Below, piece after piece: positions 11,434 through 64,000 of a stretch of 64,000 bases of DNA. The stretch comes from Mustelus asterias (Eukaryota). The notes beneath the pieces are model-generated. The model was not told where the DNA came from. It made no database searches and saw only the letters and a list, made by a program, of their open reading frames with translations. The stretch covers positions 24,304,001 through 24,368,000 of the forward strand of contig NC_135808.1 in NCBI RefSeq assembly GCF_964213995.1, in the 5' to 3' direction. Each line of letters begins with the position of its first letter. The stretch's first letter is position 1. Made by a program: the position numbers and the translations under genes.

Positions 11434-12843
11434 CTATCTTGTTGCACCAATGTTCTTGTACTGACACAGGAGGAGTTGCTTGAAGGTTTTCTTGAAGGTA
11501 GGATTACACAGTGCATAGCAGGCTGGGTTCACGGTACTGTTGAAATAAAAGATCCAATATCCAATAATCCAGACTGTGTTGGGGACACAGGTTGCACAGA
11601 AGGTGTCAATGAGAACCATGACATTGTATGGGGCCCAGGTGATGAAACAAGCCAGGAGAATAGCCAGGACGGTCCTCGTCACCTTCTTCTCTCGGGATAC
11701 AACTTCCTTCTTCGTAGCAGAGATATTGGCCATTGTAATGATCATATTGTCTTGTTTGGTCTCTCTATCATGCCCTCTCTTACTGCTGATACATGGCACC
11801 ATTCTTGCTGTGGTACCACAGTGGTCATTGTTATGAGATTTGCTAACTATCCTAAGGCAGGAGAGTTTGGTGTTACCCATCCGGAAACAGCTTTGTGTAG
11901 TAGAGATCTCTTGTATTGTCCCTTCCTGCTTCTGGTTTGATGGGACCACACTGGGGGAAGTTATCTCATTGTGAAGCTCCTTCTCTTCTTGGCCACAATT
12001 CGCAGTTATTATTTCTCCAGTTCTATTGTCACTTTGCATTTTGGCGTGTGGCAAACCATCAGGAGCATTTGATGGGCTGCTACTATTCCGTTCCATTACC
12101 TTTCCTTTCTCTCGACTGTGAGAAACGGTTCCCTCGCTCGATTCAGACACCTTTTTATCTTCCATTATTCGACTCTTGCTGGCTCGAGATATTTGCACGT
12201 ATAAAATCATCATGATGAACACAGGGAGATAGAAGGCAACTATAGCAGTGCCAAAAGTCACAGCTGGATTTGAAAAGAATTGCACATAACACTCACCTTC
12301 ACTAACTGTCCGCTCCCCTACAATGAACTGCCAGAAGAGAATGAGAGGCGCCCACAGGATAAAGGACAGCACCCAAACAGTTACGATCATCATCCCTGCC
12401 ACCTTCGTTGTCCTCCACACGGGGTAGCTGAGGGGTTTTGTCACGCAGAAGTAGCGGTCAAAACTGATAACCAGGAGGCTCATGGAAGAGGTATTACAGA
12501 CAACATAATCGAGAGCGAGCCACAAATCACATATCACTGGACCAAACGGCCAGTAGCCAATTAGAGTGTAGATGTTGTACAGATTCATCGAGAACACGCC
12601 AATAATCAAATCAGCACAGGCCAAGCTGAAAAGAAAGTAATTGTTAATAGTTTGTAAATGTCTGTTTACTTTGATCGAAACGATGACCAAAATGTTTCCA
12701 ATAATTGTCACCAAACTTAAAGCAGCTGTCACAGTTAAAATGAGGACAACTTCGAACGTTTTGTAAGGACTCCCTCTTTCGCTGAGAAACAGGTCTGCTG
12801 GGTTGTTGAGAGATTCATCTGTCCGTGTAGAGTTTGCCATCAT
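11434..12843 (-). CDS. CHRM2: Muscarinic acetylcholine receptor M2-like GPCR (469 aa, single coding exon)
   Basis: Intact ORF from MMANST; TM motifs [64 protein letters not shown]; C-terminus YKNIGATR as in M2; pyrimidine tract + AG acceptor at 12867-12868 just upstream of the ATG. Ortholog versus paralog status is not resolved. Confidence 0.93.
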
Positions 12844-14679
12844 TCCCCTCTGATGTGCAGTGAGCACTGAAGAAGCAGAAATGTAGAAACTAAAAGAGGA
12901 AATGATTAGGAAATAGATTTCAGATGTTTTGAAATTAAAAACCAACGGGCGTCTCATTGAATTCCTAACAGCAAGATAAAAACAACTACTGTTCTTAGAA
13001 ACCAGTATCTTTTGGGGGAGGGACTCTGTTTTAATGAGGAGGTATTTCACGGGTCATTTACTTAATTATGAAAGAATAGTGAATTACTTGTTCCAAACTG
13101 AATGAAGATGTTGATGAGCGTCATTGCAAACATTGCAACACGTCTGGGTGAATCTCCTTTGCGCTCTGCAAATATTCGGCTGAAAACTTTCATCCCTTAC
13201 GTTCATGTCTCAAGATCACAAACTCATGTAAACCCAAAATGTCCAGATCTACTCGTGAAGTGGTGTAAGAAGGAAAAGCTTTAGTGTTGCATACCACATA
13301 ATCTCTCACTCTTTGCTTCCGCTCTGCTCTGGAACTTCAACATTTCGACGCTCGGCTGTTTTTCTTTGCAGCCCCAAGGCACTGCTGGCTTAACTGGGTG
13401 CTGATTTAAAATTGCACCTCTTCCAGCCTCGAGATGATGCTACCAGATTTTTCTCGGACACCCACCTCAAAGAGGTCCTACTTAGCCACTCCCCAACACA
13501 GCACTCAACATCTCTCCTTAAGTATGCTCTTCCCCCCATAAGATCCATGTTCTGCAGCCCTTCTTTGAATGATATATTCCCAGAATATAAAATCTTTCAT
13601 GTTATCTCTACTGCTCCATCTGCAGGTCAAATAAAACATAATAACATTGCCTTGCTTGATTGTGAAACCTTTGCAAGCTGCAAGCATTTTTTCTTCTTCC
13701 CTTTGAAATTTACATCTAAAAATCCAAACCCTTGTTTATCTCCAAATGCAAATTTTTACCCATGGCTTATTTACTTTCGAAAATCAACGTGCCATGCTTA
13801 CTTAATATGCATTGCTTTGATGTCTCAAACTTTATTCACCATGACTACTCAGCATAACTAAATTATGTCCACACATTTATACACAATCCTGTTTCTCAAA
13901 ATAACACAATGAACCCCAAAATTATTAAATACAATACCATCTCTCGTCACACTTACAAAGGGGCATGATCAGTTGGTTTGCAGAAATGAACTCAATCTTG
14001 AACTCAAGGAAGCCTGGTTAAACTGGCTGCTTTTAAAACAAATACATTTGGGATGGGAAAAGGATTCCGCAACGGAAGGGAATCCTTTTGAAATAATGTT
14101 GTTGAGAGTAACCAAGGGTTGAATAAAAGGAACCAATTCATCCTTCCTCAGCCATGAGAATTTTGGTGATATCACTTCCAGAATTTAACTATATTGTGGC
14201 TCATGCCAAGATAGTTCTCACAGACAGAGTGTACCGAATTTGGGAACATCACCCTGGAATGCGTCATAACATAGCATGTCCCAGCATAAAAGCTCTACTC
14301 AAGTCTCCTCTGATATTTCCTCATCTTATTTTTCCCTCTATTCACTTCATATCTTGTCCAGCTTCCGATCTGGACAATTTGTTTTAAGTACTCCCTGTAG
14401 TAGCGAGTCCCACATTCTCACCCCCCTTTGGGTAAAGAAGTATCTTCTGAATACCCCATTGGCTTTCTTGGTGTCTACCTTATTTTTTGGGCTGCTGCAT
14501 CTGATCCTCCTCACAAAAGAAATCTACAATATGAAAACATGTCAGAATTTTAAATGCGTCTATTAGGTTGGACTTCAGCCTCACAATTCTTTTCTGCTTT
14601 GTATCGCAAAACATTTCTAGTCTCATCTTTGCAAATCTTCCCCACATCCACTCCAAAGCCTCTAGCTTATTGTTCTATA

Positions 14680-33971: not shown

Positions 33972-36470
33972 TGATTTGATTTTTGGTTTGATTTATTATC
34001 GTCACATGTATTAGCATACAGTGAAAAGTATTGGTCCTTGCGCGCTATACAGACAAAGCATACCGTTCATAGAGAGGGAAAGGAGAGAGTGCAGAAGGTA
34101 GAGTTACAGTCATAGCTGGGGGTAGAGAAAGATCAATTTAATGCAAGGTAGGTCCATTCAAAAATCTGATGGCAGCAGGGAAGAAGCTGTTCTTGAGTCG
34201 GTTGGTACGTTATCTTAGGCTTTGTATCTTTTTCCCGACAGAAGAAGATGGAAGAGAGAATGTCCAGGGTGCATGGGGTCCTTAATTGTGCTGGCTGCTT
34301 TGCCAAGGCAGTGGAAAGTGTACACACAGTCAATAGATGGGAGGCTGGTTTGCGTGAAGGATTGGGCAACATTCATGACCTTTTGTAGTTTCTTGTAGTC
34401 TTGGGCAAAGCAGGAGCCATACCAAGCTGTGATACAAACAAAGAATGTTTTCTATGGTGCATCTGTAAAAGTGGGTGAGAGTCATAGCTGACATGCCAAA
34501 TTTCCTTATTCTTCTGAGAAAGTAGAGGCATTGGTGGGCTTTCTTAACTATAGTGTCGGCATGGGGGAACCACGACAGGTTATTGGTGATCCAGACACCA
34601 AAACACTTGAAGTTCTCGACCCTTTCTACTTTGTCCCCATTGATGTAGACAGGGTATGTTCTCCTCTACGCTTCCTGAAGTCGATGACATTCTGCTTTGT
34701 TTTGTTGACATTGAGGGAGAGATTATTGTCGCTGCACCAATTCACCAGATTCTCCATCTCATTCCTGACCTCTGTCTCATCATTGTTTGAGATCTGACCC
34801 ACTACGGTGGTACCGTCAGCAAACTTGAAAATTGAGTTGAAGGGGAATTTGGCCACACAGTCATAGGTGTATAAGGAGTATGGTAGGGGGCTGAGAACAC
34901 AGCCTTGTGGGGCACCAGAGGAGGTGCTGTTGCCTATCCTTACTGATTGTGGTCTGTGGGTTAAGAAGTTCAGGATCCAGTCGCAGAGGGAGGAGCCGAG
35001 GCCCAGGCCACGGAGTTGGGAGATGAGTTTCATCAAAATAATGGTGTTGAAGGCTGAGCTAAGGGCAATAAATAGGAGTCTGATATAGGTGTCTTTGTTA
35101 TCTAGGTGTTCAAGGGTTGAATGCAGGGCCAGGAAGATGGGGTCTGCTGCGGACCTGTTGCGCGGTAGGTGATCTTAGTGGATCCAGGCAGTCCGGGAGG
35201 CTGGAATTGATTTGTGCCATGACTAGCCTTTGAAATCACTTCATAATGATGGATATCAGAGTCACCGGACAATGGTCATTAAGCCACGCTGCTTGGCTTT
35301 TCTTTAGTACTGGGGTGATGGTCGCCTACTTGAAGCAGAGAGGGACCTCAGATTGTTGTAAAGGGAGGTTGACGATGTCTGTGTATACCCCCGCCAGCTG
35401 ATCTGCGCAAGATCTGAGTACTTGTTCAGGTACTCCATCCGGGCCAGTCACTTTCCATGGGCTAGCTTTGAGAAAGCTCCTCTGACATCTGCAATGCTGA
35501 CCTCAGATTCAGGTTCATCCAATGCTTCCAGGGTGGAGGGCATTCTCTCGCTGACCTCTTGCTCAAAGGATGCATTGAGCTCATCGGGGAGGGGTGCTTT
35601 GGAGCTGGTGATTTTACATGTCTTCATCTTGTAGCCTGCTATGTCTCGTAGACATTGCCGTAGTCGGCGGGAGTCAGTGTGGCTCGCCTGGTACTCTAGC
35701 TTGGTCCGGTACTGGCTTTTTGCATCTTTGACGGATCTCCGAAGATCATATCTGGCTTTCCTGTACAGGTCAGAGTCACCTGACTCGAACGCCTCGGACC
35801 TAGATTCAGCAAGTAGTGGATATATCTTTTCATCCATGGTTTCCGGTTGGGAAATACATGGATTTGGCTCTTTGGCACACAGTCTTCTACACACTTACTA
35901 ATGAAGTCAGTTACTGTAGTGGCGCACCTGTTCAGGCTGGTTGCAGAGTTTTTAAATACTGACCAGTCCACTGACTCCAAGCAGCCCCGCAGGAGATTAT
36001 CCGATTCCTCAGACCAACATTGCACAACTTTCTTTGATGGATTCTCCCGCTTCACTTTTTCCTTTTAAGCTGAGAGCAGGAGCACAGCCTTGTGGTCTGA
36101 TTTGCCAAAGTGTGGGTGGGCGATAGAGCAGGAGGCATGTTTGATATTTGTGAAGCAATGGTAGAGGATGTTTGGGCTTCTGGTGCAACAGGAGATGTGT
36201 TGGTGGTATCTTGGGGGTACGCTCTTGAGCTTGGCCTGATTGAAGTCCCCAGCCATGGTGAACAAGGCCTCTGGACGTTTCGTCTCAAGGCTATTTGCAG
36301 TGGTGTATGTTTCGTCCAGCGAGGTCTTCATGTCCGCATGGGGTGGAATGTAAATTGCTGTCAGGATAACAGAGGTGAACTCCCACGGAAGGTAGTAGCG
36401 GTGGTATTTTAGCGTTAGGTATTCTAGGTCCGGGGAGCCAAAACTCGCCAGTCGTCCATGAGTCTTCGCA
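33972..36470 (-). mobile_element. Rex1/Babar-type LINE, degenerate ORF (APE endonuclease + RT)
   Basis: [57 protein letters not shown]; (TTTGA)n-type tail. Confidence 0.85.
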
Positions 36471-38717: not shown

Positions 38718-39898
38718 GTCTCTCAGTGTGTGAGCTGTGTCCTCTCTGATACTGTCCCTCTCAGTGTGTGAGCTGTGTCCTCTGTGATACTGTCCCTCTC
38801 AGTGTGTGACCGATGTGCTGTACTGATCCTGTCCCTCTCAGTGTGTGAGCTGTGTCCTGTACCGATACTGTCCCTCTCAGTGTGTGAGCTGTGTCCTGTA
38901 CTGATACTGTCCCTCTCAGTCTGTGAGCTGTGTCCTGTACTGATACTGTCCCTCTCAGTCTGTGAGCTGTGTCCTGTATTGATACTGTCCCTCTCAGTCT
39001 GTGAGCTGTGTCCTGTACTGATACTGTCCCTCTGTGTGTGAGCTGTGTCCTGTACTGATACTGTCCCTCTCAGTCTGTGAGCTGTGTCCTGTATTAATAC
39101 TGTCCCTCTCAGTGTGTGAGCTGTGTTCTGTATTAATACTGTCCCTCTCAGTGTGTGAGCTGTGTTCTGTACTGATACTGTCCCTCTCAGTATGTGAGCT
39201 GTGTCCTGTACTGATACTGTCCCTCTCAGTGTGTGAGCTGTGTTCTGTACTGATACTGTCCCTCTCAGTGTGTGGGCTGTGTCCTGTACTGATACTGTCC
39301 CTCTCAGTATGTGAGCTGTGTCCTGTACTGATACTGTCCCTCTCAGTATGTGAGCTGTGTCCTGTACTGATACTGTCCCTCTGTGTGTGAGCTGTGTCCT
39401 GTATTGATACTGTCCCTCTCAGTCTGTGAGCTGTGTCCTGTACTGATACTGTCCCTCTCAGTATGTGAGCTGTGTCCTGTACTGATACTGTCCCTCTGTG
39501 TGTGAGCTGTGTCCTGTACTGATACTGTCCCTCTCAGTCTGTGAGCTGTGTCCTGTATTAATACTGTCCCTCTCAGTGTGTGAGCTGTGTTCTGTACTGA
39601 TACTGTCCCTCTCAGTGTGTGGGCTGTGTCCTGTACTGATACTGTCCCTCTCAGTATGTGAGCTGTGTCCTGTACTGATACTGTCCCTCTCAGTATGTGA
39701 GCTGTGTCCTGTACTGATACTGTCCCTCTGTGTGTGAGCTGTGTCCTGTATTGATACTGTCCCTCTCAGTCTGTGAGCTGTGTCCTGTACTGATACTGTC
39801 CCTCTCAGTCTGTGAGCTGTGTCCTGTACTGATACTGTCCCTCTCAGTGTGTGAGCTGTGTCCTGTACTGATACTGTCCCTCTCAGTCTGTGAGCTGT
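38718..39898. repeat. 39-bp minisatellite, about 30 copies (CTGTGTCCTGTACTGATACTGTCCCTCTCAGTGTGTGAG)
   Basis: Tandem array visible directly; 13-aa periodicity in the ORF track; occasional 35-bp variant units. Confidence 0.97.
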
Positions 39899-44752: not shown

Positions 44753-47218
44753 CATGCATTTACCCTAGGTAGTCCCCCTGACACTAAGGGGCAATTTTAG
44801 CATTGCCAGTCCACCTAACCCGCATATCTTTGGACTGTGGGAGGAAACTGGAGCACCCAGAGGAAACCAACACAGACACGGGGAGAATGTGCAAACTCCA
44901 CACAGACAGTGTCCCAAGCTGGGAATTGAACCCAGGTCCCTGGCTCTGTGAGGCAGCAGTGCTCACCATTGCGCCACCCATGTCTTGAAATGTTCTCCAC
45001 TGCAGTGGTGTTACCCTACCCCAGCAATATTAGTTTTGTATTGAAGGTTTCACAGAGGCAGGAAGTGAAAGACATTGGAGCAAAGTTACAGATTGCAGAA
45101 ACAAGTGACTGAGTTTGCAGTGAACGAGACAGGTTCCTCGAGTTTGTGCAGGATGATAGGGCAGATCAGAATAGCTTTAAATGTGCAGCTCCAGATAGAG
45201 GAATTCCTGACAAACCATTACCACAGTTCCATTTACAGAGTCACAAATATGGAACTTGAATCAGTTGGTCGCTGTCAGCTCAATGACAGCAGATCTTCCC
45301 TCATTCTCTTGTCCACTGCTGTTCTCAGGGACTGCTACCTCTGGATTACACTGCCTGGCCCGCACTGGGGATGAGAAAGAAATACATCACTTTAGAGTGA
45401 GGCAAACCCAGCAGAGCTGGAGCACCCCCAACAAAACCCATCAGATCCACCCAACTCCCACATTGGGTGCTGGACACAGCATCTTAATTGGCCAGCTCTA
45501 TAAACAACTACCCAGCAGACACTCCTTCTGCTGGATCTTAATCAGCTCCCCCAACAGTGTGCTGAGCCCAAGGCAGCTCTGTCAAAGAGGATGCCGCAGT
45601 GGAACCACCTGGTGACAAGCTGCAGTGATGCAGCTGAAGTGGGTAGATGAACATTGCACGCCCTCCACCTAGATCCTGCTGGGTCATTTCCAAAGACATT
45701 TAAGAGACAACCACATTGCTGTGGGTCTGGAGTCACATGCAGGCCAGACCAGGTAAGGATGGCAGATTTCCTTCCCTCAACGACAGCAGTGAACAAGATG
45801 GGTTTTTACAACAATTAACAATGGTTTCAGGGTCATCATTAGACTTTTAATTCCAGATTTTATTTTTTCTTGAGTTCAAATTCCACCCTCTGTCTTGGTG
45901 GGATTCAAATCTAAGTTCCCAGAAATGTATCCTGTGTCTCTGGATTACTAGTCCAGTTGCAATCCCTCTACACTGCTGGCAGCCCAAATTCCACATGGAA
46001 CTACCGGACATGTGTCACACACCTGTGTGGTGGGTTATCAAAATCAGGAATTACAGCTTGGGGAGGTGGAACTGGACAAGACCGCGAAGATTACTTACTG
46101 TCACCTTCATGCATCTTCCAGGTTTTAATCTGGAATGAGAGGCTGCAATTATACAAGAACATTGTGATCCAGTTAAAGAGATGTGCAAAGTACTCATTTA
46201 ACCTTAACTGATAATCCCTGGGTGGGAACATTTTTCTAAAATCCATCTACACACATCCACCACATTTTCCCATCATCATGTCTGTTACCATCTCAAAGAA
46301 TACTCGGACGTTTGACAAGCACCATCTTCCCTTTTGAAATCTGTTCTTGCTGCTAATTTATTGTTACTAATTCCTCTTGATGTGCATTTCTGGTCATTTC
46401 TTCTCAAATTCATAGAATCCTACAGTGCAGAAGGAGGCCATTCAGCCCATCGTGTTTGCACTGACCACAATCCCACCCAGACCCCTCTCACCGCAACCCA
46501 TGCATTTACCCCAGCTAGTCCCCCTGACACTAAGGGGCAATATTAGCATTGCCAATCCACCTAACCCACACATCTTTGGACTGTGGGAGGAAAGTGGAGC
46601 ACCCGGAGGACACCCGCGCAGACATGGGGAGAATGTGCAAACTCCACACAGAAAGTGACCCAAGCTGGGAATTGAATCCAGGTCCCTGGCGCTGTGAAGC
46701 AGCGGTGCTAACCACTGTGCCACCGTGACACCCATGTCTTGAAATATTCTCCACTGCAGTGGTGTTACCCTACCCCAGTAATATTAGTTTTGTATTGAAG
46801 ACTTTGCAGAGGCAGGAAGTGAAAATAAATCATTTATTGCAGACATTGCAGCAAAGTTACAGATTGCAGTTTGCAGTGAACGAGACAAGTTCCTAGAATT
46901 TGTGCAGGATGATAGGGCAGATCAGAATAGCTTAAGAAGTGCAGCTCCAAATCGGGGAATTCCTGACAAACCATGACCACAGTTCCATTTACAGAGTTAC
47001 AAATTTGGAACTTGAATCAGTTAGTCACTGTCAGCTGGATGACATCACATCTTCCCTCATTCTCTTGTCCACTGCTGTTCTCAGGGACTGGTACCTCTGG
47101 ATTCACTGCCTGGCCCGCACTGGGGATGAGAAAGAAATACATCACTTTAGAGTGAGGCAAACCCAGCAGAGCTGGAGCACCCCCAACAAAACCCATCAGA
47201 TCCACCCAACTCCCACAT
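44753..47218. repeat. Local direct duplication of about 710 bp (copy A 44753-45463, copy B 46499-47218)
   Basis: Both copies share an HE1 SINE, the same SINE/flank junction (cacccatgtcttgaaat) and about 480 bp of non-repeat sequence. Confidence 0.9.
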
Positions 47219-48014
47219 ATACCAACAGCAAAGTCCATCAGATGCCTCACGCCTAATAATGCAGAAACCTGGAAATAGTACAGAGAGTGTCGGGGTGAAA
47301 TTAAAAAGGAAATCAGAAAAGTAAAGAGAGGGCATGAAAAATGCTGCCAAGACAATATCAAAGAACCTCCAAAGATGTTGTATAAGTACATGAAGAGAAA
47401 AGGATAAGGAAAGGGGTGAACTTTTTGGAGACCAATAAGATAACCTGTGTGAGAGGGTGGAGAATGTGGTGAGGTTGTGAATAAATACATTGCCACTGTC
47501 TTTGGGAAACGGAGCAATGCTGACATTGCAGTTAAGGGAGAAAGGTGTGAATTACTGCATCAGATAAACATTGTAAGAGAGGATGTATTCAGGGATCTTA
47601 CAAGTTTGAGAGGAGATAAATCACCAGATTGAAAGAAGCAAAGGAGGGAATTGCAGAGGCTCCGATCATCAGAATCATTCCTCTCGGGCTACAGGAGAGT
47701 GAATGGAGATGAAAGGACTGACAGCATTACACCATGGATTGAAAAGGGAAGAAGGGGCAATCTGAGTAATTATACACCAGTTAGTTTAACTTCGGTGGTG
47801 GGAAAATTATTGGAATTAATAATTCCAATGTGATGAAGTATAAACCTTCATTTAGAAAGGCACAGATTAATCAAGAGACGTTAGCGTGGATTTAAGGTGA
47901 GCTCATCGCGGGCGAAATGGATTGAAAATATGGAAGAAGTGAGAAGGAGGCTTGATGAGCTCAAACCCATCAGACCCCTAAACGCCAGCACAATTAATCC
48001 GAGCAACAAACACG

Positions 48015-49185
48015 AGACCCTCACTCCCGCACTCATCCAAACCCCTCACTCCCACACTGACCCCAGTCCCCCACTCCCACACTGACCCCAGTCCCCCACT
48101 CCCACACTGACCCCAGTCCCCCACTCCCACACTGACCCCAGTCCCCCACTCCCACACTGACCCCAGTCCCCCACTCCCACACTGACCCCATGTCCCCCAC
48201 TCCCACACTGACCCCATGTCCCCCACTCCCACACTGACCCCATGTCCCCCACTCCCACACTGACCCCAGTCCCCCACTCCCACACTGACCCCAGTCCCCC
48301 ACTCCCACACTGACCCCAGTCCCCCACTCCCACACTGACCCCAGTCCCCCACTCCCACACTGACCCCATGTCCCCCACTCCCACACTGACCCCATGTCCC
48401 CCACTCCCACACTGACCCCATGTCCCCCACTCCCACACTGACCCCAGTCCCCCACTCCCACACTGACCCCAGTCCCCCACTCCCACACTGCCCCGAGCCT
48501 CCCACTCCCACACTGACCCGAGCCTCCCACTCCCACACTGACCCGAGCCCCTCACTCCCACACTGACCCGAGCCCCTCACTCCCACACTGACCCAAGCCC
48601 CCCACTCGCACACTGACCCGAGCCCCTCACTCCCACACTGACCCGAGCCCCCTCACTCCCACACTGAGCCGAGTCCCCCACTCCCACACTGACCCGAGCT
48701 CCTCACTCCCACACTGACCCGAGCCCCCTCACTCCCACACTGACCCGAGTCCCCCACTCCCACACTGACCCGAGTCCCCCACTCCTACACTGACCCGAGC
48801 CTCCCACTCCCACACTGACCCGAGCCCCTCAGTCCCACACTGACCCGAGCCCCTCACTCCCACACTGACCTGAGCCCCCCACTCCCACACTGACCCAAGC
48901 CCCTCACTCCCACACTGACCCCAGCCCCTCACTCCCACACTGACCCGAGCCCCTCACTCCCACACTGACCCCAGCCCCTCACTCCCACACTGACCCGAGC
49001 CCCCCACTCCCACACTGACCCAAGCCCCTCACTCCCACACTGACCCCAGCCCCTCACTCCCACACTGACCCGAGTCCCTCACTCCCACACTGACCCGAGT
49101 CCCCCGCTCCCACACTGACCCGAGTCCCCCACTCCCACGCTGACCCAATCCCCCCACTCCCAAACTGACCCAATCCCCTCACTCC
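48015..49185. repeat. 25-bp C-rich minisatellite (CCCACACTGACCCCAGTCCCCCACT and variants)
   Basis: Tandem array visible directly; a shorter sister array lies at about 50475-50705. Confidence 0.97.
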
Positions 49186-52500: not shown

Positions 52501-55500
52501 TGATGACCGCCGAAGTGTCACTGCAGGTGGCTCACTCTCCACAACAACCTCTGGCTGAGATTCCGCTGCCTCCATTTCCATTTCTAAGGCCGAGTCCTCC
52601 CCAGCTGTTTTGAAGCCAAGCGTTGGTTGAGTTCCTTTGCTGCCAGTCGATGTGCACGTTTGATGTGCTAGTTGCTTCTGTCGAACATTTTGGACGGCGT
52701 CAGAGGGTCAATATGTTTCCTTACTATCTTGTCTTCAGTTTTTACAGTGTATAACACTGGACCGATCCTTGAGGGGGGAACCCGTGGTGTCCATTGGGTG
52801 CTATCTCCAAAGTTTTGCACGTGGACGGTGTCTCCTGGATTAAAATTCCAATCAGGCGAATGTCCCCCCTTGACCCATATTTTGTGCTTTTTGTTTCTCC
52901 TCAATTTTTACACTTAGATTCAGGAAAGTGAGGCTCAGCCTGATCCTGCAGGCGTGTGCCCATCAGGAATTCTGCTGGGGCTAAACCCGTCATTATGTGC
53001 AGGGTTGCCCTGTAGTTAAAATGAACTGTACCAACTGCCCAAGGAGCCCTGAGTTTGTTTTTTTCATGCTGCTTTTGAACACTTATTTGAACTCCTTTTG
53101 AACCCAAAGATGTGCGGGTTAGGTTGACTGGCCATGCTAAAATTGCCCCTTAGTGTCCTGAGATGCGTAGGTTAGAGGGATTAGTGGGTAAATGTGTAGG
53201 GATATGGGGGTAGGGCCTGGGTGGGATTGTGGTCAGTGCAGACCCGATGAGCCAGATGGCCTCTTTCTGCATTGTAGGGTTTCTAAGATTCTATGATTCT
53301 ACTTGGACTGCTCGCCCTGTGAAGCCATTCAATGAGAGGTGATATGGGGCTGTGCAGACATGTCTTACTCCATTTGTGGTCATGAATGTTTTGAACTCTT
53401 CACTGGTAAACGGGTCCCATTGCCTGTTACGAGGACCTCTGGTATCTCATGCGCACTGAAAGACTGCCCGAGCTTTTCTATGGTGTAATATGAAGTGGTA
53501 AAAGCCACCCGGTGTAGACCAATCTACTTCGGGTGGGCATCAATCAATATCAGAAACATTGAGCCCATAAATGGCCCCGCACAATCCAAGGACTTCCCGG
53601 CCATTCCCAGGGGAACAGAGAGGCTACTGGTGGGGCCCCCTGGTTATCCTGGCAAGCTTTGCATGTTTGAACCAGTTCCTCTGTGTCCCCATCTGTACCA
53701 GGCCGTCAAACATAGTTTCCAGCTCACATTTTCATCATTCGACATTGTATTTGTCAAAGTAAAAGTTAAAACACAACTTTGTGGTACATGGACATGAGTC
53801 CCATCCAGGATGATAGAACACCGGACCCGCTCAAGGGATTGACTTATCAAGGGCTCTGGATACGAGTTCCACCTGGTTAGGCAATTGCCTATCGCCACTG
53901 GAACTCAGATTCCCATGAGTCTGACTGGGGGGTCAATCAGGGATTCCCCTTGTAGGTGCTGGGGGTTATCACAACTATCATATTTTTTTGCTTTCATAGA
54001 ATCTACGGCACAGAGGCAGGCCCTTTGGCCCAAACTGGTCCGAGCCGATCAAAATACCCATCTAACTTAACTCCATTTGCCTGTATTTGGCCCATATCCC
54101 CCTAAACCTTTCAGATCCATGTATCTGTCCAAATGCCTTTTAAATGTTGTCAATGTCCCTGCTTCAACCACTTCCTCCGGCAGCTCTTTGCACATATGTA
54201 CCACTCTCTGTATAAAACAGTTGCTCCTCAGGTTTCCATTAATTCTTTCCCCCCTTAACATAAACCTATGCCCTCGAGTTCTCGATTCCCCAACCGTGCG
54301 AAAAAGACTGCATTCACCCTATCCATGTCCCTCATGATCATATTATATACCTCTATAAGATCACCCCTTAGTCTCCTACACTCCAAAGGCAAAAAGTCCT
54401 AGCATGTCCAATCTCTCCCTACAACACAGTCCCTTCAGTTCTGGCAACATCCTTGTAAATCTCTTCTGTACTCTTTCGAGTTTAATAACATATTTCCTGT
54501 AGCAGGGCGACCAAAACTGAACACAATACTCCAGGTGCGGCCTCACCAACGTCCTGTGCAACTGCAACATAACTTCCCAACTTCTATACTCAGTGACTTG
54601 ACTGAAGGCCAGCGTGCCAAAAGGCTTCTTCACTGCCCTATCTACCTGTGACTCCACTTTCAGAGAACTGTGCACCTAAACTCCAAGATCCCTCAATTCC
54701 ACGAAACTCCCTAAGGTCCTCCAATTCACCGTTAAAGTCTGAGCTTGATTTGACTTTCCAAAATGCAACAGCTCACACTCATCTGTGTTGAACTCCATTT
54801 GCCATTTCTCAGCCCATTTCTCCAGCTGATCAAGATCCTGCTGCAATTTTTGACAACCTTCCTCACTGCCTAAAATACCACCTACTTTAGTGTCTTCTGC
54901 AAACTTACTGATCATGCCTTGTACATTCTCATCCAAATTTTTGATAATAGATAACAAACAGCAATGGGCCCAGCACCGACCACTGGGGCATACACTAGTC
55001 ACAGGCCTCCAGTCCGACAAGCCCCCGACAATCTCCTTCCTATCATCACGACAATTATATCAGCAATTTGCCAGCTCTCCCTGGATTCCATGTGATCTCA
55101 CCTTCCAGAGCAGCCTGCCATATGGAAATTTATCAAAGGCCTCACTGAAGTCCATATAGACTTTCTAGATTTTCATGAATTCTCTCCAATAGTCAGAGTT
55201 CCAGTATTTTTCTGAACATTGATCCGAAGTTGACTGAAGTAAACATCCAGAATACACTGGCCCTGTCACACTGTAATATCCCAGGATACACTAGGCCCTG
55301 TCATACAGTAATATCCCAGGATACACTGGCCCTGTCATATTGTAATGTCCCAGGATACACTGGCCCTGTAATACTGTAATATCCCAAGATACACTGGCCC
55401 TGTCATATTGTAATGTCCCAGGATACACTGGCCCTGTAATACTGTAATATCCCAAGATACACTGGCCCTGTCATACTGTAATATCCCAGGATACACTGGC

Positions 55501-58500
55501 CCTGTCATACTGTAATATCCCAGGATACACTGGCCCTATCATACTGTAATATCCCAGGATACACTGGCCTGACACACAGTAATATCTCATGATCCACAGG
55601 CGCCCTTTCCGACCATAATATTCAACAATGCAATGGGTCCTGCACTTCCTGTTATTTGCCACAATGCACCGGGCCCTGTCATGCTATAATGTCGCAGGAA
55701 ACACTGGGGCAGATTGCACAGTAAAACCCCAGGACACACAATCACTTTCCTTTAATGGTGACACCATAATTATGTAATGCATTGAAGATTAATATTTATT
55801 TCCTTCTTGCTCTATACAGGCCTCAGGCTGTTCTGGGTTGACAGCTCAGCACTGACTCTCACTCCTGTGATCCTGGTCTGAGGCTGGGTCCTCTCGAACA
55901 GTGAGAAACAGTCTTACCGTAAATCACCACCAGTGTCTCATTCATCCCGCTGTGTTCCACCCGACAGGAATACTCGGCCTGGTCCTCTGGATCAAACTCT
56001 ACCCATTTCCGGATCTGGTAGGTGCTGTCATGATTGGGTAAGATCCCAGTGGACAGAGTCTCATCAATCACCACTTCATCTCTCCACAGATTCACCTCGA
56101 TGGCCTGAGGGTAAAACCCGGTAATGGCGCAGGACAGCCGGTTAGAATCACCCAGACGGGTAAAGGACACGACGGGGGCAACTGAGAGAGAAAGAAAGAG
56201 GAGTCAGTACAGGAACCTTGAGATAGAGAGTCCCGGCATCACCCCCTTCACCGACTCTCACTCCCCCCCTCACTCACCGACTCTCACTCCCCCACGCTCA
56301 CTCACCCACTCTCACTCACCCACTCTCACTCACCCACTCTCACTCACCCTCCCTCCCTCCCTCCCTCACTCACTCTAAGTCCCCTGTGTCAGAACTCTGT
56401 CTTTCAGGAATGTATTTGCATTTCTTCTAAAGGGACTGTTTTATGTGTCAACTCTGATTACTGCAGCAGCCCACATGCTGATCATTGTTACGAAGTGGAA
56501 GTTGATCTCCTCTCTGAGAACTGATACTCAGCCACTTAAAGAGCATTACGTCCCTTCATAATCTGTTAAAGTGTGTGTGAGAAGGGTTAATATCTGCTCT
56601 TCAGCAACTTTTAATGATCACATCAAAATAACTACCTGAGATTCCCTTTGTAAAGCACAAGTAACACTTTATTTATCTAACTAACAGCAATCAGGTTAAC
56701 TAAACAATTAACAAACCGAATAAAGCACGATTCCAATGGAATGCTGTTTAGATAAATCCAATTCCCATTTTTTACAAAACAATTTGAATTTCTCGTCACT
56801 CTCAAAATTTTAACCAGTTTTGTCATCTTCCGGAATGCTCTGTCTTTATCTTCTGTTTCCTGTATCTTCCGTTTGTACCTTTATGCTTGAGATGAGGCTT
56901 TCTTTTAAGACATAAATGTGGCTGTTACTCTGTTAGAGACAGTTGCTGTCTGTCTCTCTCTCTCAAGCTGTAAACTGTGGCAGATGCATTTGCTGGCAGA
57001 GGCGGGAGTGTGGCTTTTATACTCCGGATGACATATCAAAAATCCCCACAATAGGATTGGTTTACCACTAGTTATCAAAACATCAAATTCAAATCTGAGA
57101 GGCTGCTGCTATTCAAATGCCTAATTTAAACTGATTGGTTAAAGTTACTGCCCAGGCTCATGATACAATGTACAGTGTACAGCATGCACCGACTACTCTT
57201 CAGTACAGAAAAAAAACTACCTTTTTTTAAAACAGACCATGCAATGCGTTCTGCTCCCAGCATTTTTACAATTGTTTTATAATTTTAAAAACACTAACTG
57301 CACAATATAATGCAGAAGAATAATTGCTCCTAATTATTGGGGTGTTTGTTTTAATCTGAGCTAATGCAGTTTGTGAAATGTTGTGGTTTTCTCCTGGTGT
57401 TTCAGAGTCGGGTGTAATTAGGTTGATTGGCAAGAAGGAAATCATGTCAATGGGAGCAGTTTGGGTTACAGAGGGACAGGCAGGCAGTTGCTGTTTCAAT
57501 TTCAAAAAGGAAGGAGCAGCTCTTTCTCTCTCCCTTTCTCTGTCTGGAAATTGCAGTCTGGGAGCTGATAGAAAATAAGTATCTCCCTCCAGCGTTCTGC
57601 AAAATGCACTCGGTGTTTTCTATCTTTTTCTCTATCTGTCACGCGTCACTCAATGACTCAGTCCCCCTCACCCACTGATTCCCACCCCCCTCTCACTCAC
57701 CCACCGATTCCCACTCACTCCCACCTCACCCACTGATTCCCACTCACTCCCCCCTCACTCACCCTGACCCACTGATTCCCGCTCCCTCCTCACTCACCGA
57801 CTCTCGCTCCCTCCTCACTCACCAACTCTCGCTCCCCCCTCACTCACCCACTCTCGCTCCCCCCTCACTCACCCACTCTCTCTCCCCCCTCACTCACCCA
57901 CTCTCGTTCCCCCCTCACTCACCCACTCTCGCTCCCCCCTCACTCACCCACTCTCGCTCCCCCCTCACTCACCGACTCTCACTCCCACCTCACTCCCCGA
58001 CTCTCACTCCCACCTCACTCCCCGACTCTCGCTCCCCCCTCACTCACCGGCTGTCAGTTCACTCTGTCCGAACTCGAGGAATTTCCTCAGCCACTCAATA
58101 CAGTCCACCTCCAGTAATTGTTTCCATTGCTCATTGTAGGCAGCGTCCCTGTCAAAATTGTTTTTGATGCTCTCTCCCCAGGGCACTGCGGTCACCCACA
58201 CCATGTGATCCTTGTCGAAGCTGAGAAGATCCTGTCCATTCCACCCAAACTGGGTGAATCCACTCGTGGTCCCATCATCCCTCAGGTTGCAGCCAAACAT
58301 CACCTGGAGGACATGGATGCCTGTGGATAACAAACAGCCAATTAGAGTCAGTCCCAATGTGAGATCCCACCCCCACAGCCAATCCAAGCTAGTTCCACTC
58401 AGAAGCCAGACCCACTCTATCAAGAGCCAATCAAATCAAGCGAGGCACCTCCCACCACATAGAAAGCCAATCAGCGGCAGTTACACTAAGTGGATCTCAT

Positions 58501-58945
58501 GTCCTCCACACACAGCCAATCCGAGCCAGTCTCTCTTGGATACATTCCCTCCACTCATTGATCGCCAATCAAATTTGCTGTCACATATCCAATCGTAGCC
58601 AATCAGCCTCTGGCTCCCAGTTCCTGATCCATTCTTGGTTTCTTCCCACCTGCACCCACGAGTGGTGGGAAAGTGAGGACTCACTTCCTGTCTGCTGGGA
58701 CAGAGAAATGAAGTCCGGAATAAACACTTTGAAACTCATCCCCAGCCCTTGTGAGAGAATCTTCTTCTGTTCCCAAGCCTCATGTCCGTCACACTCCACC
58801 ATCCACTGCTCCCGGGGGATCAGCTCCTTCCGATCGCTGTCGTACACAACAACCTGGAGATCATCCACATAACCGACAAGCACAAACTCCGGGAAACCCG
58901 GGATTGGAGTCATTCCCGTGGCGAAAATCCGGAAAGAGTGAGAAC
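49435..58945 (-). CDS. Non-classical MHC class I heavy chain (partial model: alpha1 58685-58945, alpha2 58048-58320, alpha3 55918-56181, TM 49435-49539)
   Basis: Four phase-1 exons of 261, 273, 264 and 105 nt with GT-AG sites splice in frame without stops; class I motifs GSHS, FPEFV.VGYVDD, YDSD, H.LQ.M.GC, GQD, CIEWL.K.L..G, C..TGFYP..I, PNHD.TYQ, YSCRVEHSG, hydrophobic TM. Confidence 0.9.
50939..51735. mobile_element. PIF/Harbinger-like MITE inserted in a CR1 fragment
   Basis: TIRs GGGCGGAATTGTACG / CGTAAAATTCCACCC (13/15 match); 3-bp TSD ATG at 50936-50938 and 51736-51738; CR1 sequence continues across the site. Confidence 0.7.
52098..53973 (-). mobile_element. Internally deleted Gypsy LTR retrotransposon (LTRs 52098-52359 and about 53748-53973; integrase relic; nested HE1 fragment about 53104-53300)
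   Basis: Two direct repeats ending ggggttatcaca; purine tract GGAGTGGGAGGGA next to the 3' LTR; integrase motifs TGLAPAEFLMG, FNPGDTVHVQNF, GPVLYTV. Confidence 0.8.
53995..55160 (-). mobile_element. CR1 LINE 3' fragment
   Basis: [33 protein letters not shown]. Confidence 0.88.
55246..55590. repeat. 34-bp minisatellite, about 10 copies (CCCAGGATACACTGGCCCTGTCATACTGTAATAT)
   Basis: Tandem array visible directly, e.g. unit starts at 55315 and 55349. Confidence 0.93.
55918..56181 (-). CDS. MHC class I alpha3 (C1-set Ig) exon
   Basis: ctctctcag| (V)APVVSFTRLGDSNRLSCAITGFYPQAIEVNLWRD...PNHDSTYQIRKWVEF...YSCRVEHSGMNETLVVIY G|gtaaga. Confidence 0.92.
57660..58047. repeat. About 24-bp CT-rich minisatellite (CTCACTCACCCACTCTCGCTCCCC) directly after the alpha2 donor
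   Basis: Tandem units visible; a related stretch lies at 56245-56375 before the alpha3 acceptor. Confidence 0.85.
58048..58320 (-). CDS. MHC class I alpha2 exon
   Basis: atccacag| (S)IHVLQVMFGCNLRDDG...GWNGQDLLSFDKDHMVWV...LEVDCIEWLRKFLEFGQSELTA G|gtgagt; the C101-C164 pair is retained. Confidence 0.92.
58685..58945 (-). CDS. MHC class I alpha1 exon
   Basis: tgtttttcag| (G)SHSFRIFATGMTPIPGFPEFVLVGYVDDLQVVVYDSDRKELIPREQWM...SLSQQTG A|gtgagt. Confidence 0.92.
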
Positions 58946-59021
58946 CTGAAAAACAGAGAGAGATCAAGGTATGAACACAAAACACCAGCATCCACTGTTG
59001 GGCACCAGATTAGAAACTCCA

Positions 59022-61500
59022 TGTTATGAATTTAGACCAGACCCCAACTCTCTTTTTTGACTTTGACATTCGTGTGAGGATAAAGTGTTTCACTCGAGGT
59101 GTCATTCCAATGACCCACTAGGAAGCTTTTGTCAAAACAAACTTTATTTAACAGTACAGTTTAACTATAACAAAAAGAAATAGCCTCAACTTTTACCAAC
59201 TGAAATTCTTACATGTGACAAGATACAACTCTTAACTGCTGGATTATTTTGAATTGTTCCAATTTAAGCAATATTCCTCATAGACATAAACACCTCCTCA
59301 AAATCAGTCAGCAAACAGCCTTACATGTGGGTATCTGAGCTGGGTATCTCCAGCCTCCAAAACACCTCTGGAGAGAGCTATTTTCTAGAAGGTCCCAAAC
59401 TACAGTCTTTAGAGAAAGAGAGAGAGAATAATGCTTCTGGCAGATCCAGGCAGACAACTGCCTGCTTGTCTTCCTGTGAGCTTAGCTCTTCCCATCAGCA
59501 TATGACTTCCTCTTGTCAATCAACCGAATTAAACCTTACTCTGAAACCCCAGGGACAACCCCAAAAAATAAACAAAACAGCTCAGATAAAAGCAAAAAAA
59601 AACATTATCTGGGATAAATTATGCTTCTGCACTCTCAGCATGTGGGCTGCCGTTTGTGGGCAAATCGGCACTGTAATCAGAGCTGAAGTTGAAAACAATC
59701 CCTTCACAAGAAACGTGATATAGATACATTTCTTAAAGGCACAGTATCCTCACACCTCCCCCTTAAAAAACAGCAATAAAAAATGGCTTCATTTTTCAAA
59801 ACTTCAAGTTTCACACGATTAGTACTACATATATATATATATAAAATATACACATTCTAGTAAATCTATGCATGCAAGTATAATAGTTCTATTCTCCAGT
59901 ACAGTCATTCTCTTCCAACATTGAATATTCCTTCCTCTTTCATGAAATTGTTGATGAAGCATCAGCAATCACATTCTCACTTTCTGCCACATTGTAATTC
60001 TCATATAAAATGGCTGTAATAATAAACTCCATCTAAAGAGCCTTTCACTTTGATCTCTAAATTTCTCCAGAGACGTCAATGGATTATGATCAGTGTAAAT
60101 AACTGTCTCAGATGAATTGCTGACAACAGAAACGTTAAAATGTTGCAATGCCAACACCAAACTCAATGTTTCTTTTCTCAATGGTTGAATCTCTTTTGAT
60201 GGTTATTTAGTTTTCCAGAAAAAAGTACCCAATTGGTCTTTATATCCTTTTGTCATCTTCTTGTAATAGAACAGCTACATCACTCGCATCAATGGCCATG
60301 TTGAATGGTTTTGCATAATTTGTTCTTGCCAACACAGGTGCAGTGGTTAACACGTTATTCAGGCTGCCAAATGCCCTCTGACATTCACCGTCCACTGAAA
60401 TTTTGCATGTTTTTTCAGCAAGTCAGTCAGTGCAGCAACCATAATGCAAATGTTTGGCACAAAATTCCGATAAAAACCATCCAGGTCCAAGAATGCAGTA
60501 CTTCACTTTTCACCGGCAGTATTGGGCACTCCCCAATAACCTTTGTTTTCACCGACCGTAGGGCCTTCCATCCATGTCTAATTGTATGGACGATGAATGT
60601 GACTTTGGCTTTTGTAAACTCGTTCTTAGCCAAGTTTACCACCAAGCCTGCATCCTGAAGCCAATTGAACAATTCCGCTCGGTGCTCCAAATGTTACTTC
60701 CACGTCTGACTGAAAACCACCGGATTCTTTATGTACACAGCACAATTAGGTAGTCCAGAAATGACCTTATTAGTTAATGTTTGAAATGTGGCTCATGCAT
60801 TTTTCATTTCAAATGGCATGATTTTAAACTGGTATTGACCAATTTTTGTCATGAAAGCCAAAATCTCCTTTGCCCTTTCGGATAAAGGTACCCGCCAGTA
60901 TCCTTTTAGTAAGTCAAGTTTGGAAATAAAAGTCACTTGTCCCACCTTCTGAATGCAGTCTCCCAAGAAAGGAATGGGATATGAATCTTATTTTGTAACT
61001 GCATTAACTTTCCTATAGTCCACACAGAATTGTTGGGTGTCATCTCATTTTGGAACCATCACTACGGGTGAGCTGCACTCGCTCCAACTCACTTCAATGA
61101 TGTAATTTTTAAATATGCTTTCAATCTCCTTTTGAACCTATGCCAACTTTAGAGGGTTAAGCCTGTACAGATATTGCTTAATTGGAACAGCATTTCTTAC
61201 ATCTACGTTGTGCATAATTATTTTAGTCCTTCCCAGTTTATTCCCACATATCTCTCCATGTGGTTGTAATAACTCTTTCAGGCCATTTTGATTTTCCTCC
61301 AGAAGGTAACTCAATCGTTTATTTCAATTTCCAATTACTTCCACATTATCCAATCTAATTTGAATAATGTCAAATGCAGGATCATCTGGACTTATTTCTT
61401 CACTCTGCTTTGTCATAACTAATGCATCCTCCTTCTGCTTTCCTTCCCGATCAAAATATTGCTTGAGTATATTCTCAGGAAACACTCTGAGATTTCCTTC
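59022..61500 (-). mobile_element. Gmr1-like Gypsy retrotransposon relic (3' LTR 59022-59754, PPT, RNase H, RT, integrase C-terminus)
   Basis: TG...CA-bounded 733-bp LTR; PPT ttttaagggggagg at 59755-59768; RNase H KETLSLVLALQHF...IYTDHNPL...RWSLLLQ; RT SKLDLLKGYW and MPF motifs; NILKQYFDRE at about 61445-61472. Confidence 0.8.
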
Positions 61501-61519
61501 TACCCAACGTTCTTGTCAA

Positions 61520-64000
61520 ATAATTCTTCACAGGGACTATCAAGCAGCACCTGCTTAATGATAACCTGCTCAGTGACGCCCAGTTTGGGTTTCACCAGGG
61601 TCACTCAGCTCCTGACCTCATTACAGCCTTGGTTCAAACAGGGACAAAAGAGCTGAATTCCAGATGTGAGGTGAGAGTGACAGCCCTTGATATCAAGGCC
61701 ATATTCGGCCAAGTGTGGCATCAAGGAGCTCGAGCAAAACTGAAATCAATGGGTATCAGGTGGCAAACTCTACGCTGGTTGGAGTCATACCTGGCACATA
61801 GGAATGTGATTGTGGAGGGTCAGTCATCTCAGCTCCAGGACATCTGTGCAGGAATGGACAATGGGGAACCTGTGGATGTGGTGTATCTGGATTTCCAGAA
61901 GGCATTTGACAAGGTGACCCACCAAAGACTGCTACACAAGATAAAGGTGCACGGTATTACAGGTAATGTCCTAGCATAGATATAGGATTGGTTAACTAAC
62001 AGAAAGCAAAGAGTGGGGGAAAATGGGTGTTTTTCTGGTTGTCGATCAGTGATTAGTGGTGTGCCTCATGGATCAGTGTTGGGACCACAATTGTTTACAA
62101 TTTACAGAGATAATTTGGAGTTGGGGACTAAGTGTAGTGTGTCAAAATTCACAGATGACACTAAGATGAGTGGCAGAGCAAAGTGTGCAGAGGACGCTGA
62201 AAGTCTGCAAAGGGATATAGATAGGCGAAGTGAGTGGGCGAGGGTCTGGCAGCTGGAAGACAATGTTGATAAATGTGAGGTCATCCATTTTGGTAGGAAT
62301 AACAGCAAAATGGACTATTATTTAAATGGTAAAAAATTGCAGCATGCTGCTGTGCAGAGGGACCTGGGTATCCTTGTGCAGAATTTCAAGGAGTTGGTTT
62401 GCAGGTGGAGCAGGTAATTAATAAGGCAAATGGAATTTTGTCCTTTATTGCTGGAGGGATGGAGTTGAAAAATAGCGAGGTTATGTTGTAGCTGTATAAG
62501 GTGCTGGTGAGGCCACACCTGGAGTACTGTGTACAGTTTTGGTCTCCTTACTTGAGAAAGGATATACTGGCACGGGAGGGGTTGCAGAGGAGATTCACTA
62601 GGGTTGATTCCAGAGTTGAGAGGGTTGGCTTTTGAGCAGAGACTGAGTAGACTGGGGCTATACTCATTGGAATTCAGAAGAATGAGGGGAGATCTTATGG
62701 AAACATACAAGATTATGAAGGGAATAGATAAGATAGAAGCAGGGAAGTTTTTTCCATTGGCTGGTGAAATTAAAACGAGGGGGCATGGCCTCAAAATAAG
62801 GGGAAGCAGATTTAGGACTGAATTGAGGAGGAACTTCTTCACACAATGGGTTTGAATCTGTGGAATTCCCTGCCCAGTTGAGGCTACCTCATTGAATGTT
62901 TTTAAGGCAAGGATAAATAAGTTTTTGAACAGTAAAGGAATTAAGGGTTATGGTGAGCAGGCGGCTAAGTGGAGGTGAGTCCATGAGAAGATCACCCATG
63001 ATCTTATTGAATGGCAGAGCAGGCTCGAGGGGCCAGATGCCTACTCCTGCTCCTGGTTCTTATGTTCTTATGAATCCCTTAGGGTAGTGTCGTCAGCCCA
63101 ACCATCTTCAACTGCTTCATCAATGATCTTCCCCCCATCATAAGGTCGGAAGTGGGGATGTTTGCTGATGATTCCACAATTTTCAGCACCACTCATGACT
63201 CCACATATACTGAAACAGTCCATGTTCAAATGCAACAAGATCTAGATAATATCCAAGCTTGGGCTGACAAGTGGCAAGTAACATTCGAGCAACACAAATG
63301 CCAGGCAATGATCATCATGAATACGAGACACTCTAACAACCACCCCTTGACATTCAATGGTGTTACCATTACTGAATCCCCCACTGTCAACATCCTTGGG
63401 GTTACTCTTGACCAGAAACTCAACTGGACTCGCCACATAAACACAAGAGCCGGTGAGAGGCTGGGAATACTGTGACGAGTAACTCACCTCTTGATTCCTC
63501 AAAGTCTGTCCGCCATCTACAAGGCAGAAATCAGGAGTATGATGGAATACTCCCCACTTGCCTGGATGGGATGAGGTCCAGCAAGACTCAAGAAGCTTGA
63601 CACCATCCTGGACAGAGCAGCCCGCTTGATTCGTACCATATCCACAAACATCCACTCCCTCCACCACTGACGCTCAATAGCAATAGTGTGTACTATCTAC
63701 AAGATGCACTGTAACAATTCACCAAATATTCTTGACAGCACCTTCCAAACCCACAACCACTTCCATCTCGAAGGACAAGGGCAGCAGATACATGGGAACA
63801 CCACCACCTGCAGGTTCCCCTCCAAGCTACTCACCATGGTGACTTGGAAATGTATCGCCATTCCTTCACAGTCGCTGCGTCAAAATCCTGGAATTGCTTC
63901 CCTAATGGCATTGTGGGTCAACCTACAGCACATAGACTGCAGCGATTCAAGAAGGCAGCTCACTATCACCTTCTCAAGGGCAACTAGGTATGGGCAATAA
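61520..64000 (+). mobile_element. L2/CR1-group LINE RT fragment (61520-61852 and 63073-64000) interrupted by a CR1
   Basis: QFGF, ALDIKAIF, LRWLESYL; resumes with gggtagtgtcgtcagccc, MFADDSTIF, WADKWQVTF. Confidence 0.8.
61853..63072 (+). mobile_element. CR1 LINE 3' fragment nested in the L2-like element
   Basis: VDVVYLDFQKAFDKV, GVPHGSVLGPQLF, KFTDDTK; tail cctactcctgctcctggttcttatgttcttatg. Confidence 0.9.

Follow-up and report, generated by a model that had tools for sequence, protein, structure and literature searches.

Among the closest described systems are class I molecules of the MHC (major histocompatibility complex) with hydrophobic grooves. Chicken MHC-Y YF1*7.1 is described as having a classical scaffold, a hydrophobic groove and non-peptide ligands (PMC2998441), and YF1 is reported to bind N-myristoylated peptides (PMC12212280). 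In sharks, UFA and UGA are presented as old single- or low-copy lineages that are CD1-like on a personal communication (PMC12562908). A shark UGA structure has been released (9CH4), and lipid-binding class I is not new in sharks, UFA and UGA having preceded the case reported here. The teleost L lineage and Xenopus class Ib have been proposed as lipid binders (PMC4364491; table in PMC12562908), and PMC10751288 calls the roles of the class Ib lineages in sharks unknown. Here we analyze an MHC class I gene (the focal gene) on the minus strand of a 64,000-nt stretch of the Mustelus asterias genome, G000:C8:24304001-24368000, which is called the window below.

By lineage the focal gene is a shark UBA; it encodes a non-classical MHC class I heavy chain and is one of a young subfamily of six copies. 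The subfamily is newly described here: all eight peptide-terminus anchors, the N86 glycan site, the tail exons and a promoter module have been lost, and its groove is hydrophobic and has been under selection. No description of a hydrophobic UBA subfamily was found in the literature searched; outside it, Almeida 2020 and 2021, the Almeida thesis and Bartl 1997, or their supplements, may cover one. We favor, by a modest measure, the view that the subfamily binds hydrophobic ligands without need of peptide, that it is young and arose from a scaffold of peptide type, and that it is similar to YF1 in its working and unrelated to CD1, UFA and UGA.

UBA lineage and loss of the peptide anchors

A table of 92 class I rows was assembled from 40 of the 56 loci in the same genome (8 broken, 6 unparsed and 2 mis-spliced loci were omitted) and 52 database proteins. 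In a quick tree of its 76 unique rows, with one short row dropped, the focal α1+α2 fell within a 54-row clade that contains the nurse shark UBA reference (SH-aLRT 99). The focal α1, α2 and α3 also match by eye the nurse shark UBA query of PMC10751288, as does P0031. Since the sequence both matches this query and groups with the UBA reference, the lineage is already known; a first-pass annotation of the window had proposed a possible member of a shark lineage, and that lineage is the described UBA. The focal gene and five near copies at 21.88, 22.65, 23.06, 23.47 and 24.67 Mb group together at the end of a long stem (support 100). The α1α2 protein is identical in the last four of these, and the six copies carry three distinct groove versions. 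No subfamily member outside Mustelus was found in three protein searches, which is weak evidence.

Residue numbers come from alignment to nurse shark UAA (PDB 6LUP) and from comparison by eye with the HLA-A2 rows of PMC10751288 (supplementary file 10); for the eight anchors and N86 the definition of PMC4364491 was followed. The focal gene keeps 0/8 anchors and has I7, A59, L84, I143, N146, F147, L159 and F171 in their place, together with L123, exactly the replacements that had been listed for it. These eight anchors and the N86 site are traits of classical class Ia (UAA), which is also marked by high allelic polymorphism and ubiquitous expression; a single assembly was analyzed here. Each of the six copies keeps 0 or 1 of the 8, and they share I7, L84, Q86, L95 and L159; the N86 glycan site reads Q86-Q87-T88 in all of them. 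The claim that replacement of all eight is distinctive has to be narrowed. Across the remaining rows of the UBA clade, counting near-duplicates, Y59 is present in 0/63, T143 in 10/63, K146 in 13/63 and W147 in 35/62, vs. Y7 in 53/57, R84 in 50/63, Y159 in 51/62, Y171 in 57/63 and N86 in 62/63. Because Y59, T143 and K146 are mostly gone already in other UBAs, only five of the eight losses are special, and the special part of the focal gene is these five anchors plus N86.

The residues of the fold are preserved, as had been proposed: H3, D29, H93, Q96, C101, G120, D122 and C164 are present, as are the four core cysteines. On a list of β2-microglobulin (β2m) contacts and a loop numbering that we assume from HLA, H3, F8, T10, Y27, Q32, R48, W60, Q96, Q115, G120 and D122 are retained, and the contact and fold positions equal the UBA reference except for D119N. 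The first-pass annotation had missed N86>Q, D119>N, one additional α1 Cys and the fact that tail exons and promoter module are gone.

A hydrophobic groove

The groove was taken as 37 positions that we assume from HLA-A2. Its Kyte-Doolittle mean is 1.62–1.88 in the six copies, which are the six most hydrophobic of the 92 rows and bear out the hydrophobic groove proposed earlier; the next values are 1.42 (horn shark P0040) and 1.41 (zebra shark P0016), and the other 84 rows lie at or below 1.04. In the focal gene 28/37 groove positions are hydrophobic, the charges that remain being K63, D80 and D163. Hydropathy outside the groove is ordinary in the subfamily. The grand average of hydropathy (GRAVY) of the focal α1+α2, −0.22, is the highest of 86 rows (median −0.61); in PMC4364491, HLA-A2 stands at −0.902 and human CD1 between −0.056 and −0.448, with domain limits that may differ from ours.

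The hydrophobic groove is more than chance. When five ordinary paralogues were mutated at random, the focal hydropathy was reached in 0, 0, 0, 4 and 8 of 4000 runs, and with the number of groove changes held the same, the observed hydropathies were reached in 0–8 of 4000 runs in each of 15 tests. The mean groove side-chain volume is 162, within the 155–169 of rows that have all eight anchors. Large aromatics line the focal cleft (F74, F77, F81, F99, F116, F147, W156, W167, and F171), and W167 and W133 are retained.

Selection on groove and framework

Groove codons have been positively selected both on the branch to the subfamily (stem) and among its copies (crown). Between the three versions, the proportion of nonsynonymous differences is 0.16–0.25 in the groove and 0.03–0.05 in the α1α2 framework, with divergence of 0.02–0.04 in two long introns and 0.05–0.11 in the α2-α3 intron. 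Amino acids vary at 20/37 groove positions vs. 18/140 others (p = 5.5e-7); the maximum among 20000 random site sets was 16 variable sites. A codon model of 16 sequences, in which recombination was ignored (intron distances are somewhat mosaic), gave a ratio of nonsynonymous to synonymous rates (ω) for the groove of 1.36 in the background; the stem value was 2.37 (p = 0.022) and the crown value 6.32 (p = 3e-7). For the framework, ω was 0.46 in the background and 0.51 on the stem (p = 0.07). On the focal branch 12 groove replacements were counted vs. 1.7 expected, and 7 non-groove replacements vs. 12.2 expected (p = 0.08). Most of the new groove codons occur in 0/31 ordinary paralogues and were therefore not copied from them. 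Gene conversion as the source of the groove changes is thus rejected for the 31 examined, while unsampled haplotypes are possible donors.

Gene model and shared deletions

The features of the focal gene are listed below; coordinates without a prefix are window positions.

G000:C8:24372042-24371979, minus: leader exon, 64 nt, ATG to GT, beyond the window and 9,033 nt upstream of α1
58946-64000, minus: leader intron, part of 9,033 nt, 96–97% identity to the intron of the sister copies
58945-58685, minus: α1 exon, 261 nt, with I7, A59, L84, N86>Q, a hydrophobic helix and the extra Cys
58320-58048, minus: α2 exon, 273 nt, with L123, I143, N146, F147, L159 and F171; C101 and C164 present
56181-55918, minus: α3 exon, 264 nt, UBA-type C1-set Ig domain with both Cys and one N-glycan sequon
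49539-49435, minus: connecting peptide and transmembrane (TM) exon, 105 nt, GT donor retained
47958-48926, no strand: shared deletion site, ~2.9 kb lost, both cytoplasmic-tail exons and the proximal 3' UTR removed
46833-47119, minus: candidate replacement last exon in retained 3' DNA, holding the last five codons and stop of P0002, with AATAAA at 46838

The α1, α2, α3 and TM exons have AG/GT ends and in-frame joins; α1 and α2 are in phase 1-1 with zero stops, in agreement with the intact, in-frame splicing first noted. A leader exon, which had been named as a point to check, was found 9.0 kb upstream of α1, and a normal one is present in 6/6 copies. The NCBI models of the subfamily (P0001, P0002, and P0003) conflict at both ends, showing neighbor fusion, a missing leader or another first exon. 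P0003, from a sister copy, was modeled with AlphaFold2 instead of P0002 because P0002 is without strand 1. The model has a mean pLDDT of 86.5 and a class I fold, and in Foldseek it returned 6LUP first and then mostly MR1 (rmsd 4–5 Å). As a prediction it bears out the class I fold and is uninformative on groove and ligand.

In the tail that NCBI predicts for the focal gene, no Tyr occurs past the membrane boundary; in the four near-identical copies, a GC donor is present and a stop comes early after it. Upstream, a TGACTCA...CTGATTGG module lies ~150 nt before the ATG in 17/22 ordinary paralogues, an 18th having it by alignment and 4 being without a match. By its resemblance to the X2/Y consensus we call it X2/Y-like. 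The role of the SXY module is treated in PMC7573153. The subfamily retains its leader and splice sites, with one Y-like box upstream and an AATAAA downstream. Tandem repeats lie at 38720-39898 (39 bp), 48042-49185 and 57780-58048 (25 bp), and 55247-55586 (34 bp) of the window; that at 48042-49185 sits at the shared tail-exon deletion site.

Ligand binding and competing explanations

The loss of the eight peptide-gripping residues, together with a hydrophobic and fast-evolving groove, makes it likely that fat-like molecules are displayed instead. Selection acting on residues that point inward speaks for a bound ligand. Against a conventional peptide stands the loss of all residues for terminal hydrogen bonds. 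From its sequence, the focal protein likely pairs with β2m, and what it holds for display is likely a lipid, a lipopeptide or some similarly hydrophobic ligand. The steps proposed here lean on general class I biology. I7, A59, L159 and F171 would turn the A pocket, and L84, I143, F147, L123, L95 and F116 the F pocket, into apolar cavities for acyl chains, with K63, D80 and D163 at the groove rims near the ligand head group. Loss of the N86 glycan would fit release from the calreticulin/tapasin peptide-loading route. Without the Tyr-bearing tail, loading might take place in the secretory pathway and not by CD1-style endosomal recycling, and loss of the X2/Y-like module may mean restricted or low expression. 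Diversification of the grooves among copies could reflect changing ligands or receptors.

A number of observations weigh against this reading. The crown framework has an ω of 0.95, not different from 1 (p = 0.91), and non-groove replacements in the other two lineages number 11 vs. 6.1 and 15 vs. 10.6 expected. Stop-free frames have a probability of 0.20 under neutrality and are weak evidence. Within the copies, hydrophobicity is not significantly better retained than at random (341–452 of 4000 runs), and groove differences between copies are hydrophobic on both sides in 7/16, 8/17 and 5/11 cases. The four near-identical copies have F8S, Q32R, R48Q, W51R and Q115R at β2m-contact positions, where the focal gene is unchanged. 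Both tail exons of an ordinary neighbor are missing downstream of the TM exon in 6/6 copies, the TGACTCA...CTGATTGG module is deleted in 6/6, and their CCAAT has changed to CTAAT. The NCBI model P0002 of the focal gene begins within α1 and is without a leader. No transcript of the focal copy was seen, no RNA run being on record for the stretch; the spliced evidence comes from run X1, of another organism, and the C164 codon in its α2 contig is changed and would encode Phe.

Run X1, whose RNA status is guessed, contains an α3-TM joint with the intron ends, which was absent in three other runs compared. Because α3 and TM hardly differ among UBA genes, this splice does not single out the subfamily. 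Compared with the focal copy, two X1 contigs show differences at 11/141 and 7/130 nt, vs. at least 26 and at least 13 for ordinary paralogues, and the one with the changed C164 codon has the F156 codon of the four-copy version. The contigs hint at the presence and transcription of the subfamily in a relative, and they are not proof of expression of the focal copy. The gene had been called apparently functional in the first-pass annotation. The intact frame, leader and groove selection speak for this; the near-neutral crown framework, the deleted tail exons and promoter module and the unseen transcript speak against it. The dN/dS comparison suggested there was similarly divided, with the groove well above 1 and the crown framework close to it.

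Much of this would be expected if the genes were former specialists for hydrophobic ligands, now silenced or decaying, with a groove selected earlier and with promoter and tail deletions that mark the loss of function. Such an explanation gains from the neutral crown framework, the altered β2m contacts of four copies, the deletions in every copy, the changed C164 codon in X1, and the broken α1/α2 frames in 8/56 examined class I loci (a further 6 were unparsed). Nevertheless, the deletions are shared by all six copies and are therefore older than the crown groove selection; with a crown groove ω of 6.3 and 12 vs. 1.7 replacements on the focal branch, selection acted after them. The leader, splice sites, Y-like box and AATAAA have been kept as well, and we consider silencing of a past specialist unlikely.

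Two further accounts concern what the groove holds. The molecules could still bind peptides, hydrophobic or N-terminally modified, by burial of side chains and with no terminal hydrogen bonds, presumably as in H2-M3 or signal-peptide binding. A diversifying groove is typical of peptide binders, the background UBA groove itself has an ω of 1.36, and W167, W133 and an ordinary groove side-chain volume point the same way. The YF1 ligands are N-myristoylated peptides (PMC12212280), so the boundary between lipid and peptide is blurred. With all eight terminal anchors and N86 gone, peptide binding nonetheless seems to us quite improbable. Alternatively, Phe, Leu and Ile could be packed together in a collapsed groove free of ligand, the protein serving as a stress or self marker or as a receptor partner, presumably in the manner of HFE or FcRn. 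The many large aromatics that line the cleft and the remodeled tail and promoter would suit a collapsed groove, but a packed core should conserve the inward-facing positions on which selection is concentrated, and the side-chain volume of 162 lies within the 155–169 of eight-anchor rows, which leaves it very unlikely. Binding of hydrophobic ligands independent of peptide is the explanation that we carry into the comparisons below.

Comparison with known systems and repeated origin

The closest relatives are the shark UBAs (nurse shark AAC60347/O19479; horn shark O19480), which share the clade, the α1 and α3 signature, a multicopy cluster apart from other class Ib, and Y59, T143 and K146 lost already for the most part. 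Ordinary UBAs are unlike the subfamily in that Y7, R84, Y159, Y171 and N86 are mostly retained, groove hydropathy is below 1.05 in most, and the promoter module is found in most of those examined; the subfamily is without these traits and without the tail exons. For the way the subfamily would work, chicken YF1*7.1 is probably the best model, with its classical-type scaffold, hydrophobic groove, expanded family and groove residues that vary between alleles. However, it has a separate origin in birds, and its ligand, structure and groove volume (~1,030 Å3) are known, whereas the subfamily is read from sequence.

CD1, UFA and UGA resemble the focal gene in apolar anchor replacements, and its GRAVY falls in the human CD1 range. 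By eye, L159 is also present in human CD1, chicken CD1 and nurse shark UFA, and L7 and F171 in chicken CD1. Most CD1 tails carry a tyrosine sorting motif, which is absent in the focal gene, its tail exons being gone. UFA and UGA lie in the other class Ib cluster; the focal gene is ~50% identical to UAA, young, multicopy, diversifying and without a tyrosine-motif tail. Descent from CD1, UFA or UGA is rejected, since the focal gene is nested inside UBA (SH-aLRT 99); these three were compared by eye, outside the trees. The origin independent of CD1 that had been suggested is thereby upheld. The teleost L lineage and Xenopus class Ib with hydrophobic pockets, also outside the trees here, are likewise non-classical, without the anchors and high in α1α2 hydrophobicity, and belong to other taxa and lineages. 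MR1 chains rank high in sequence and fold searches, yet 6LUP (shark UAA) is far closer to the focal gene. In MR1, K43 is the Schiff-base ligand residue; it aligns with Leu45 in the focal gene, and an MR1-type identity was rejected.

Two further hydrophobic groups, P0016 and P0040, were picked from the hydropathy table before trees were made, and approximately unbiased (AU) tests were run on 34 rows with non-groove columns. One origin shared by zebra shark P0016 (L84, N146, L147, F159) and the subfamily was rejected (p-AU 0.011). For horn shark P0040 (I7, L84, N146, without N86), on a long branch, p-AU was 0.32. With P0016 rejected as sister of the subfamily, it is likely from these sequences that the hydrophobic UBA groove arose at least twice. 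P0040 and P0048 (sawfish) are UBA-type, with I7 and 2/8 anchors, and are candidates for further hydrophobic offshoots.

The UBA cluster and neighboring loci

The genome has 81 α2 matches, of which 56 lie at C8 21.6–24.75 Mb; two of these make up one broken gene (~55 loci). This UBA multicopy cluster is separate both from the UDA/UEA cluster and from the class Ia region, an arrangement also seen in PMC10751288. In that paper the separate, UBA-only cluster has c4 at its flank, and c4 and rxrb are the flanking genes to be expected. Thioester-domain genes, candidates for C4, are located at 21.03–21.05 and 20.26–20.29 Mb. UBA blocks recur every ~0.4 Mb at G000:C8 22.6–24.7 Mb, and a compared pair of copies differs by 0.1–1.1% in introns; very recent segmental duplication may explain the repeated blocks, and the assembly may contribute. 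L063 (G000:C8:24390268-24391125), the next UBA upstream, is broken, its α1 exon being 1 nt short, and nothing matching the first tail exon turned up nearby. L091/L092, P0038 and P0044 form a UBA subgroup with T143, W146 and an α2 one codon longer (support 99), to all appearance an old conserved sub-lineage present in houndshark, zebra shark and epaulette shark.

Elsewhere on C8 there are divergent class I genes at 31–33.6 Mb and UAA-like genes at 28, 35 and 41.6–43.4 Mb. Class I loci among L087, L088, L089, L090 and L096 were labeled by eye against the PMC10751288 reference rows. A UAA-2-like locus at 35.07 Mb has 8/8 anchors, UAA-like loci lie at 42.40 Mb (E59) and 27.97 Mb (S143, S167), the class I gene at 41.59 Mb is broken according to the parser, and a UGA-like gene (by eye) is found at 31.15 Mb. 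The window also holds an intact, intronless muscarinic M2/M4-like receptor ORF inside the UBA cluster (11434-13053, minus; 469 aa from the first plausible Met). Among muscarinic-like matches with E ≤ 1e-70, 13/16 are on C8 21.28–25.33 Mb, within and on either side of the cluster, and a 99% identical copy adjoins the sister MHC copy at 21.93 Mb, inverted. Remnants of retroelement reverse-transcriptase ORFs occur at 2468-3787 and 34626-35174 on the minus strand.

Implications

The usual arguments on how peptide presenters gave rise to lipid presenters start from endpoints of great age, CD1 among them. In the present case, ordinary UBA neighbors, the derived subfamily and three diverging groove versions stand in one cluster, introns differ between the versions by only 2–4%, and the steps can be put in order. 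We tentatively suggest, as a possibility that we do not press, that presenters of lipids or lipopeptides arise repeatedly in the UBA cluster from a scaffold of peptide type, in the houndshark, separately in the zebra shark and perhaps in the horn shark. This subfamily might then have been caught mid-transition, with anchors, loading-complex glycan, tail and promoter module shed together and with a groove diversifying under selection like a classical peptide groove. Should the gene turn out to be silent, it still records clearly that a hydrophobic groove was selected for before loss set in. Diversifying selection on such a groove would be a counterpart to chicken MHC-Y, in the oldest of the lineages that have adaptive immunity.

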